The position numbers were made by a program, and so were the translations under genes. 64,000 nucleotides of DNA from contig OZ024761.1 of the NCBI GenBank assembly GCA_964016885.1, forward strand, positions 24,862,001 to 24,926,000, in the 5' to 3' direction. Shown piece after piece: positions 21,172 through 43,822 of the stretch; positions within the stretch are counted from its first letter, which is position 1, and the number at the start of each line of letters is the position of its first letter. The stretch is from Eledone cirrhosa (Eukaryota). The notes beneath the pieces are model-generated. The model saw only the letters and a list, made by a program, of their open reading frames with translations. It made no database searches and was not told where the DNA came from.

Positions 21172-21231
21172 TTACAAATGCCAGAGTGGTATAACAGCAG
21201 CTACTGTGAGAAATATTGAGGAAAACTTGAC
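21172..21231 (-). CDS. Paralog 3 exon 6 ([19 protein letters not shown])
   Basis: atttcttttacag|GTC AAG ... TTG TAA, followed directly by AATAAA overlapping the stop. Confidence 0.8.
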   Translation of the reverse strand, partial: VKFSSIFLTVAAVIPLWHL

Positions 21232-24200
21232 CTGTAAAAGAAATATATATTTGTTTATTTAAATATATATTGTGTTATAGATTCATGTGATTTAAATGAA
21301 TAATTTACATTAACAAATGTAATGTAAGGATGGGGATCACATTGATACCATAATAGTTATTGTAATGCTATCATAACATTATTAAAACATTTTAATCATT
21401 GTGTATTGATAATTTGGCTCTTCCAACTTTGAAGGATTTTAATATTTTAATAATATTCAATGTTGATATATCGATAAAATGGAAATACATTACAAGTAAA
21501 ATATATTTGGTTACTGCATTAACGAGACAATTGTGAGAATGTAGTGGTGTAGATTTTAATATGAAGTTATTCAGTAAGGTAAAAGTAAGAAGAGAAAACA
21601 GTTTGTACTTTTATATATGTATATGTGTCTGTGCGTGTGTGTTTTTCTCTGTGTGTGTGTGTGTATACGTGTGTTGGTATATATATGATGGAAACTCCTT
21701 TCGGTTTCAACGTATGAGGATCCAACAAGCTCTTCAACGTATCATATCTGTGTATTGCCGGAATCTTTAGAACGTTGGATAGAATGATTGAGGTATTCAT
21801 TTCGAGCCTCACTGGTTTGAAGGGGTCTCCTTTAGCTTTCATCCTTTCAAAATCAATAAAATGTATCAACCCGGTACTTGGGTCGATATTTCGTTTATAT
21901 CTCTTTTTAACTTCCACTCCTTCAATGTCACACTGGTTGCACTTATCCCTTGGCAGACATCACCCGTGATCAGACATGGTACAGGGAAGGGCTACCGAAA
22001 GGACTATAGTGCCTAAGATGTGCCGTATAAACAACGATGTCATAACAACTCCATTCTAACTGATGTTCTAATAACGCTACTAATTTGCCGCGCCTAATTG
22101 TGAAACATATGATATAATACATGTATCAATATTGAAATAGTGTCAATTGATTAGTGATATAATTCTGTTACGTACCCTGTCACTGCTATTGATAATCACT
22201 TCCTGAAAACAAGAGTTTGTGGAAATGTTAGAGTCATTTGCGAAAGCCTTATATATATATATATATATATATATATATATATATATATATATATATATCG
22301 TTTCTGAATTTGTTTAGCAAGATTCTTTATCTGAAATCGTGTGTTGAAACCGATATTGTTATACTTTGGGAGGGTCATGTTGCCAATAAGAAACACACGC
22401 ACCATTGCTTTCACTTCAATTTATTATATATTTATAAGTTTATAAATTTACAAATCTACTAACTTATAAATTTCTGGTTGGTTGGTTCCACAACCAGATA
22501 GTTGTTTATATATAGTCATAGTCCTTTCGTCACACACTCTGTGACCTCTTCAGTGACTGGGGATTCCTTTGTTGGAACCAACCAACCAACCAGAAATTTA
22601 TAAGTTTGTAGATTTGTAAATTTATAAGTTTATAAATATATAATAAATTGAAGTGAAAGCATCTGGTGCGTGTGTTTCTTATTGGCAACATGACCCTCCC
22701 AAAGTATAACAATATATATATATATAAGTATATATATAGATTTAAACTGCCTGAAGAGGTCACTGCCAAAGATGGCTGTCACTGAAATATATATAGCAGT
22801 AATAAACGAAGCTAAATTTTAATCATTTGACTTTTATTTAACTTTATTTTAAGTATATATATATATATATAAATTTACATATATATATACACAAACAAAC
22901 AAATACACACACACATATATATATATATATATATATATATAAATATATATATTTCGTTTCTGAATTTGTTTAGCAAGATTCTTTATCTGAAATCGTGTGT
23001 TGAAACCGATATTGTTATACTTTGGGAGGGTCATGTTGCCAATAAGAAACACACGCACCAGTTGCTTTCACTTCAATTTAATTTATTATATATTTATAAA
23101 TTTACAAATTTATAAATTTCTGGTTGGTTGGTTGGTTCCACAACCAGATAGTTGTTTATATATATATAGTCATAGTTCTTTCGTCACACACTCTGTGACC
23201 TCTTCAGTGACTGGGGATTTCTTTCTTCGTTTCTGTGCCTTTCCTTTCTTCTATCCTACGCCATTTTGTTTGTGTGGAAAGGAAAGGCACAGAAACGAAG
23301 AAAGAAATCCCCAGTCACTGAAAAGGTCACAGAGTGTGTGACGAAAGAACTATGACTATATATATATAAACAACTATCTGGTTGTGGAACCAACCAACCA
23401 ACCAGAAATTTATAAATATATAATAAATTAAATTGAAGTGAAAGCAACTGGTGCGTGTGTTTCTTATTGGCAACATGACCCTCCCAAAGTATAACAATAC
23501 ATATATATATATATATATATATATATATATATATATATATATATATATATATATATATATATATATATATATATATATATATATATATATATATATATAT
23601 ATATATATATATATAGAGAGAGAGAGAGAGAGAGATAGAACACTCGAAGGTAATATCCGTTGTGGTAGACTACTCAAACGATGGGGCGAGTTAGGTAGAA
23701 GTGGTAACACAACAGTTATTTCACCATAGCAAGAACAATAGATTCATCCTCAGCTCGGACTAGTCATGGTTATACGGAATAGGAAGAACAACCGTATGAA
23801 CGCGCATGCGCAGAAACGGTCACTTCACACAGGCGATACAAAGGTAAGGGCGAAAGGTGTAAGGGAAGTAACTGCGAAAGTCCTAAAAGTAGTTCCAGTT
23901 GATAAGAAAATTAGAATCTTGTTATTCAATCCGGAGTTTGTAGTTATGTAAGACGTGTTTCCAGACATGTGGACAACGTTTGAATATTTCATTACTTGAG
24001 TTTAGGCAATCGCTATTGCCTAATCTCCTTAGAATATCTATCCGTTCTTCAATACACAGTTCACATTACGGATTGCCCCTTGCGTATGTTTTGGAATTAG
24101 TGATGGCTTTCCATTGAATTGAGTATTCTATACTTGAGTCCTTGAGGGACCATACGTGGCTCGTGAGTTTCGTGGATGATCATTTGTCCGGGTAACTAAA

Positions 24201-43600: not shown

Positions 43601-43822
43601 GCATAGGACATGTGGATACTAGAAATAGTCGCCAGAAACATTCGCTATATTAAAAGCTTAACAAAAGCATAGGAGCTCAATTTATCAAAAATATTAATTG
43701 AATTTAAAACTCACATGTGTGTTATTTAGTATTCGAAATGGTAACAGACAGAACAATATATACATATCACTGGGCCACTTACCATTGAAGAGAAGGAAGA
43801 AAAACATTGCAGCTTTCATCAT
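34568..43822 (-). CDS. Paralog 4: six-exon gene, secreted, probably GPI-anchored Cys-rich protein (116 aa)
   Basis: Coding exons 43822-43783, 42606-42586, 39664-39550, 38249-38162, 35632-35606, 34627-34568. [116 protein letters not shown]. Confidence 0.88.
35606..35632 (-). CDS. Paralog 4 exon 5 (27 nt, EEIISSSDR)
   Basis: cccttgttttcag|GAAGAGATTATCAGTAGCAGTGACAGG|gtacgt. Confidence 0.8.
35920..37390 (-). mobile_element. Degenerate Penelope-like element, longer duplicate copy
   Basis: Duplicate of 23636-24605 with the extra segment ~36570-37065. Confidence 0.8.
38162..38249 (-). CDS. Paralog 4 exon 4 (88 nt)
   Basis: gtattccag|C TAC ... TGT TAT|gtgagt; lies inside ORF 38126..38389. Confidence 0.85.
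38881..39257 (+). mobile_element. Two tandem tRNA-derived SINEs (duplicate)
   Basis: Same as 26108-26484. Confidence 0.88.
39550..39664 (-). CDS. Paralog 4 exon 3 (115 nt)
   Basis: cttaaag|AT GGC TAT ... CTC TGC TG|gtatat; open. Confidence 0.8.
39810..40458 (+). mobile_element. CR1/L2-group LINE RT, N-terminal half (duplicate)
   Basis: ORF 40264..40563. Confidence 0.88.
41105..41890 (-). mobile_element. CR1/L2-group LINE RT, C-terminal half (duplicate)
   Basis: ORFs 41105..41359 and 41622..41906. Confidence 0.88.
42586..42606 (-). CDS. Paralog 4 exon 2 (21 nt, GVYLCRG)
   Basis: ttttattccag|GGGTTTACCTGTGCCGTGGTC|gtatgt. Confidence 0.8.
43783..43822 (-). CDS. Paralog 4 exon 1
   Basis: Identical to paralog 3 exon 1; donor gtaagt. 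Confidence 0.85.

Follow-up and report, generated by a model that had tools for sequence, protein, structure and literature searches.

Gene structure and genomic context

The window, a stretch of 64,000 nucleotides at C22:24862001-24926000, forms the right-hand end of a gene array that occupies 330 kb at C22 24.58-24.91 Mb. Two of its genes, paralogs 3 and 4, are built alike. Each has six coding exons, of 40, 21, 115, 88, 27, and 60 nt, and five introns that are all of the GT-AG type, and the resulting 351-nt CDS contains 116 codons plus a stop. The predicted product of both genes begins with a hydrophobic signal, continues with a cysteine-framed domain, and ends in a hydrophobic tail. The two gene models and the exons considered below are as follows.

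21172..31664, minus strand: paralog 3 gene, 116 aa, with GT-AG introns and an open frame
31625-31664, 29830-29850, 26777-26891, 25378-25465, 22176-22202, 21172-21231, minus strand: coding exons of paralog 3
26777..26891, minus strand: paralog 3 exon 3, encoding cysteines 1-3, with 10 differences from paralog 4, 9 of them non-synonymous
34568..43822, minus strand: paralog 4 gene, 116 aa, with GT-AG introns and an open frame
43783-43822, 42586-42606, 39550-39664, 38162-38249, 35606-35632, 34568-34627, minus strand: coding exons of paralog 4
39550..39664, minus strand: paralog 4 exon 3, predicted as all-helical when the fragment is taken alone (mean pLDDT 88.7)
38162..38249, minus strand: paralog 4 exon 4, encoding the last three invariant cysteines, predicted at low confidence as a helix-turn-helix (pLDDT 53)
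34568..34627, minus strand: paralog 4 exon 6, GPI-signal-like by rule and identical in paralog 3 (21172-21231)

Three further members of the array lie in the window.

2655..11781, minus strand: intact paralog 1 gene encoding 111 aa in six exons
12225..18986, minus strand: paralog 2, broken, with two exon-2 copies and an in-frame stop in exon 3
50236..50289, minus strand: orphan copy of exon 6 that closes the array on the right

Exon 4 of paralog 2 is also without one cysteine, and exons 5-6 of this copy were not found at the locus.

Exon 6 matches 27 places and exon 1 matches 25, all of them in C22 24.58-24.91 Mb or on the unplaced contig C1010; a protein search of the genome with exon 4 gives 13 matches, every one within the array. 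Complete six-exon models number 19 (17 on C22 and 2 on C1010), so that the array holds about twenty genes. This set of 19 leaves out paralog 2, the broken leftmost copy, a copy cut by a gap, two partial copies on C1010, and the orphan exons. Some points within the set are uncertain: the tail of g17 is shifted, the start of g06 lies one codon late, exon 5 exists in alternative copies in some genes, and the exon-3 acceptor of one C1010 model is doubtful. With broken copies and orphan exons inside it, the array shows the birth and death of genes.

At the gap at C22:24679016, contig C1010 (positions 1-47411) overlaps the right-hand edge and continues into the gap. It carries two complete genes and two partial ones and may be either the gap fill or an alternative haplotype with a different gene content. 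In the leftmost copy (C22:24583335-24604412), exon 1 contains one additional base and exon 5 is interrupted by a stop; this copy would be either a broken gene or a tailless secreted form. Duplications of a single exon (exon 1, 2, or 5) recur in the array, in the window at 3569-3680 and 18947-19266, and could enable alternative stalks. A tandem array with a 467-bp unit (5.5 copies, 98% matches) lies at window positions 46251-48844. No neighbouring gene was identified in the flanks of the array among the 2 of 26 listed ORFs that were scanned.

Tandem duplication and probable gene conversion

A self-comparison of the window bears out the two tandem units of the initial annotation, one spanning about 19.7-33.1 kb and the other 33.1-45.3 kb, and shows that older copies lie to their left. 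Two features bear on how these units arose and changed.

33121..33806, no strand assigned: junction repeat between the units, a hybrid of two boundary copies
42165..42820, minus strand: shared tract around paralog 4 exon 2, matching the paralog 2 exon-2 copy at 15991-16011

The left part of the junction repeat matches the boundary copy at 45273-45956 and its right part the copy at 19716-20400; such a hybrid is the mark of unequal crossing-over. Together with the lack of any N gap between the genes, it leads us to reject a false duplication in the assembly. That the assembler set two alleles in tandem is scarcely credible on the same two grounds, the hybrid repeat being what unequal crossing-over predicts, although a non-coding divergence of 2.1% could be allelic.

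Conversion from a third paralog had been named at the outset as a possible source of the local excess of differences between paralogs 3 and 4. This probably holds for exon 2, but exon 3 has no evident donor. Around exon 2, the flanks of paralog 4 differ from those of the paralog 2 exon-2 copy in 14/597 columns, those of paralog 3 in 35/582. When the changes are polarised by paralog 2, 3/3 exon-2 differences and 30/39 flank differences group paralog 4 with the paralog 2 copy. The tract is a likely product of gene conversion and, because it joins paralog 4 to this copy, it explains the exon-2 differences. For exon 3 the same polarisation gives 4 and 4 derived changes with one unclear, and 10 and 10 in the flanks; given this symmetry, paralog 2 was rejected as a conversion donor for the differences in exon 3.

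Intron 5 contains a further tract of high divergence (window 21531-21930 and 35161-35360). Here paralog 3 resembles a fragment at 50.6-51.2 kb, while paralog 4 partly resembles paralog 1, a pattern that suggests a likely second conversion tract.

Divergence between paralogs 3 and 4

A recount reproduces exactly the 18 differences in 351 nt (17 codons), 16 non-synonymous and two synonymous, that had been counted by eye, along with all 15 residue changes. Ten fall in the 115 nt of exon 3, three in exon 2, three in exon 4, and two in exon 5; exons 1 and 6 are identical, and every cysteine is retained. The identical exons had been taken to encode the cleaved signals. However, the predicted signal peptide of both paralogs extends into exon 2, and the V/G change (codon 14) lies within it. 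Charge, which many of the changes had been thought to alter, is affected by 8 of the 14 changes in the mature part, where 39% would be expected for these codons (p 0.13), so there is no excess. The two genes are the youngest paralogs within the window but not in the array: the flanks of g04/g05 differ in 2/441 columns vs 11/436 for paralogs 3/4. The g04/g05 pair (C22:24618661-24646262) has five non-synonymous and no synonymous differences in the domain.

A ratio of 16:2 is not rare here, because about 76% of the pair's sites are non-synonymous. By counting, dN/dS is 2.2-3.0 for kappa 1-4 (p 0.10-0.24), and if exon 2 is omitted the count becomes 14:1 (p 0.10). Under pairwise codon maximum likelihood (ML), omega is 2.67 for the whole CDS (p 0.156) and 5.3 for the mature part (p 0.051), the latter value varying with the position chosen for the signal-peptide cut. 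For paralogs 3 and 4 alone, then, dN/dS is not significantly above 1 by either approach, and the diversifying selection that had been proposed from this pair gains strong support, for the mature domain, once all 19 paralogs are used (see below).

The pair can also be compared with the non-coding background of the duplicated unit. Once gaps and microsatellites are masked, 189/9010 columns of this background differ (2.1%). Against it there is an excess of differences in the CDS (p 0.0005) and in exon 3 (p 0.0002), and the mature non-synonymous rate (15/179) is far higher (p 7e-6). The background is uneven, however: paralog 3 exon 3 lies within a tract of 4-5% intron divergence at about 26.5-27.3 kb, and the introns beside the exon stand at 4.4-5%, with 20/400 columns differing within 200 nt and 35/800 within 400 nt. 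Compared with these introns exon 3 yields p 0.06 (200 nt) and 0.03 (400 nt), and 10 or more differences are also found in 1.5% of 115-nt non-coding windows. The earlier impression that exon 3 is denser in changes than the flanking intron is thus sound with respect to the unit as a whole and marginal with respect to the adjacent introns. According to passages of PMC3924837, a peak of divergence around an exon can arise when selection resists conversion; since such resistance yields the same peak, the raised flanks of exon 3 are no argument against selection. Of the pair's seven domain changes, three fall at sites that have a posterior of 1.0, and one at a site with 0.95, when the pair is left out of the family analysis; this adds little, because 29/54 sites exceed 0.95 anyway.

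Selection across the family

Site models were fitted with our own implementation of the GY94 likelihood, with naive posteriors (not codeml), to 54 domain codons of the 19 paralogs. Omega under M0 is 1.71. M2a is favoured over M1a with 2dL 69.6, placing omega 3.65 on 66% of the codons, and M8 over M8a with 2dL 60.4. Separate trees for the two exons give 2dL 29.0 (exon 3) and 47.7 (exon 4); with F1x4 codon frequencies the value is 40.8, with full branch optimisation 71.2, and for M2a without paralogs 3 and 4 57.3. Among 14 simulations of a recombinant null, in which the two exons have separate trees, the highest 2dL is 12.2. Small likelihood-ratio values are inflated, because 2/14 of these simulations pass the nominal 5% cut-off. 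Outside the domain, M0 omega is 0.69 for the signal alone and 0.78 for the tail alone, with no positive class in either (2dL 0.6 and 0.5), and the two joined give a weak M2a signal (2dL 8.7, p 0.013).

A tree-free test pools four independent young pairs. Non-synonymous differences amount to 53/487 vs 6/149 synonymous (p 0.008), and in single-hit codons to 35 vs 2 (p 0.004). The least favourable variant, in which paralogs 3/4 are omitted and multi-hit codons are resolved toward synonymous, gives p 0.11; the g15/g16 pair has omega 1.4 (p 0.54), and for signal plus tail the pooled pN/pS is 0.81. The synonymous rate equals that of the intron flanks (83/1733, p 0.84), and only the non-synonymous rate exceeds them (p 2.5e-6), which rules out exon hypermutation as the cause. 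Among the 171 possible pairs, 153 have a domain pN greater than pS and 164 a domain pS greater than the flanks; the latter is probably an artefact of how multi-hit codons are counted when the pairs are distant.

Could these values arise without selection, from relaxed constraint together with conversion, alignment error, and multi-hit codons that inflate omega, the 16:2 of the first pair being chance? That pair is not significant alone, conversion tracts are present, and the flanks of exon 3 are raised. Yet the signal holds for each exon, without paralogs 3/4, and in single-hit codons, it lies far above the recombinant null, and raised divergence is expected beside an exon where selection resists conversion. 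Such an account is largely refuted at the level of the family, and we give it very little credence. Diversifying selection on the six-cysteine domain across the family is held with high confidence.

The predicted protein

Six cysteines are invariant in 19/19 models, in the frame C-x7-C-x10/12-C-x8-C-x7-C-x11-C, which spans two exons; paralogs 3 and 4 have a seventh. Mean amino-acid identity (g17 excluded) is 0.33 for the domain, 0.66 for the signal, and 0.73 for the tail. The N-terminal hydrophobic signal is found in 19/19 models (mean hydropathy 1.7-3.0 over residues 5-17). A hydrophobic tail is found in 18/19, where the last 15 residues average 1.5-2.2; the remaining model is g17, with its shifted tail (0.47). 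In the same 18/19 a short polar spacer links a small-residue omega site to the hydrophobic end, and there is no cytoplasmic part; exon 6 encodes this hydrophobic tail downstream of the small-residue site. By a rule-based reading of this layout, the protein is likely GPI-anchored.

There is modest support from structure prediction for a helical domain. For exon 3 taken alone, two helices are predicted; the predictions were made on single-exon fragments, and short fragments tend to fold helical. Of three stretches compared for periodicity in conservation, two follow a helical period (p 0.04 and 0.01) and the third shows none (p 0.12). Aromatic residues and cysteines lie on one helical face and the selected sites on the other faces. 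Taken together, these properties suggest a helical domain of about 60-75 residues, stapled by disulfides and GPI-anchored, that would combine a fixed core with a changing surface.

At two of the six cysteine sites (exons 3-4) the codon is fixed by position, in 19/19 copies each. Position-fixed cysteine codons have been reported for conotoxins.

Searches for homologs

The homology queries were single exons of 29-52 residues, and their negative results are correspondingly weak. A word-seeded search of longer proteins with such exons gave no homolog at E<=1. The HMMER library searched with exon alignments gave two matches, both repetitive and, on reading, unrelated. Four single exons and 19 exon-4 members had no Pfam match near the cut-off, the best PDB profile matches of the exon queries had E 0.047 and 0.62, and the ESM Atlas gave no usable match to single exons. 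In the literature covered, mainly open-access main texts, no description of such a family was found; supplements of genome papers may list the genes as uncharacterised.

The RGM N-terminal domain, neuritin, and DUF19 are GPI-anchored or secreted helical disulfide domains. The neuritin (PF15056), RGM_N (PF06535), and DUF19 (PF01579) profiles had no match in the array in an exon-by-exon search, itself a weak negative. Elsewhere in the genome, at C5:106850511-106850714 on the minus strand, an RGM N-terminal-like domain scores above the Pfam cut-off. This is evidently the genome's RGM gene; the domain had no PDB match at E 0.01. It has the spacing C-x8-C-x7-C in common with the array family. This likeness was rejected as evidence of relationship: the family profile scores 3.1 bits on the RGM-like domain, 147/300 cysteine-fixed shuffles score as well, and the hhalign probability of the family vs RGM is 0.8%.

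Proposed mechanism and function

We consider it plausible, though short of an even chance, that paralogs 3 and 4 arose by recent tandem duplication in a selected array of GPI-anchored surface proteins that bind changing partners, likeliest microbes or parasites. New copies would arise through unequal crossing-over at the boundary repeats, and conversion would partly homogenise introns, signal, and tail. The protein would be secreted and its tail exchanged for a GPI anchor. Three disulfides would staple a helical bundle whose buried face stays fixed while selection drives new residues onto its exposed faces, and each paralog would in this way come to present a different binding surface. Because a cytoplasmic part is absent, the protein would serve as a decoy, an adhesin, or a co-receptor and would not signal by itself. 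The presence of about twenty divergent paralogs with birth and death fits host-microbe conflict best, with gamete and self-recognition close behind; a host-microbe role, taken as a separate claim, is tentative.

Two other roles are each unlikely. In one, the proteins would mediate recognition at the surface of gametes or the reproductive tract and would diversify through sexual conflict or species isolation. Small, GPI-like, cysteine-framed, positively selected proteins suit such a function, and Juno and Bouncer, which are GPI-anchored fertilisation proteins, provide precedents. However, some 20 coexisting paralogs that share 33% identity and undergo birth and death would seem to suit a repertoire of ligands better than a single receptor-ligand lock. 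In the other, the family would provide a code for cell identity or self-recognition on neurons, skin, or sucker; alternatively, its members would be accessory subunits by which a tandemly expanded receptor family is tuned. An anchored repertoire with one frame and different surfaces would serve this purpose, and the cysteine spacing is that of the RGM-like domain. However, the RGM likeness lies in that spacing only, as the shuffles and the hhalign probability indicate, and continued turnover with broken copies would be more in keeping with an arms race than with a wiring code.

Improbable, by comparison, are venom or salivary toxins of a conotoxin-like kind, secreted or released from the membrane. 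A conserved signal, a hypervariable mature part, fixed cysteines, and a single codon at two of the six in all copies are in keeping with toxins, which were among the roles that the initial annotation had raised. But the hydrophobic tail present in 18/19 models is the most conserved part of the protein, there is no propeptide, and single exons match no Pfam or solved family; the conserved GPI-like tail disfavours a secreted toxin.

A broader possibility, of which we are doubtful, is that the array is an undescribed, probably octopod-restricted repertoire of about 20 helical mini-proteins with GPI anchors, whose evolution resembles that of conotoxins although the proteins remain on the cell surface; it would act as a recognition code and differ in gene content between haplotypes. 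If this were so, it would be a variable self/non-self code, immune, gametic, or of skin and sucker; to our knowledge, few variable recognition molecules are known from invertebrates. An omega of about 3.5-3.7 on two thirds of the domain marks strong evolutionary conflict, and the array supplies a compact set of candidates, easy to express, for the immune, gamete, or self-recognition proteins of cephalopods. The 16:2 count in one young pair was a lead and not a test.

Comparison with known systems

Ly6/uPAR three-finger proteins are small, GPI-anchored, and cysteine-rich, and they are encoded in tandem clusters; they have 8-10 cysteines, a terminal CCxxxxCN motif, and a beta fold. The array family shares with them the layout of signal, domain, and tail as well as the tandem clusters. 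Unlike them, it has six cysteines and no CCxxxxCN motif, and its exon fragments (fragments only) are predicted helical, without strands. By cysteine count and predicted fold, it would not be a three-finger family.

Conotoxin precursors show the same evolutionary pattern as the array family, but differ from it in frame, exon layout, and tail.

A molluscan parallel is provided by MgCRP-I of mussel, described in the main text of PMC4558851 as a multigene family with a conserved signal, a hypervariable mature part, and six invariant cysteines that has evolved by gene duplication and positive selection, and whose function is also unresolved. The two families thus have in common a conserved signal, a hypervariable domain, six cysteines, duplication, and positive selection. 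According to the same main text, which does not mention GPI, MgCRP-I is secreted, has a propeptide, and carries a C-C-CC-C-C frame in a mature peptide encoded by one exon (PMC4558851). The array family, in contrast, has its own frame distributed over two exons, is without a propeptide, and ends in a GPI-like tail.
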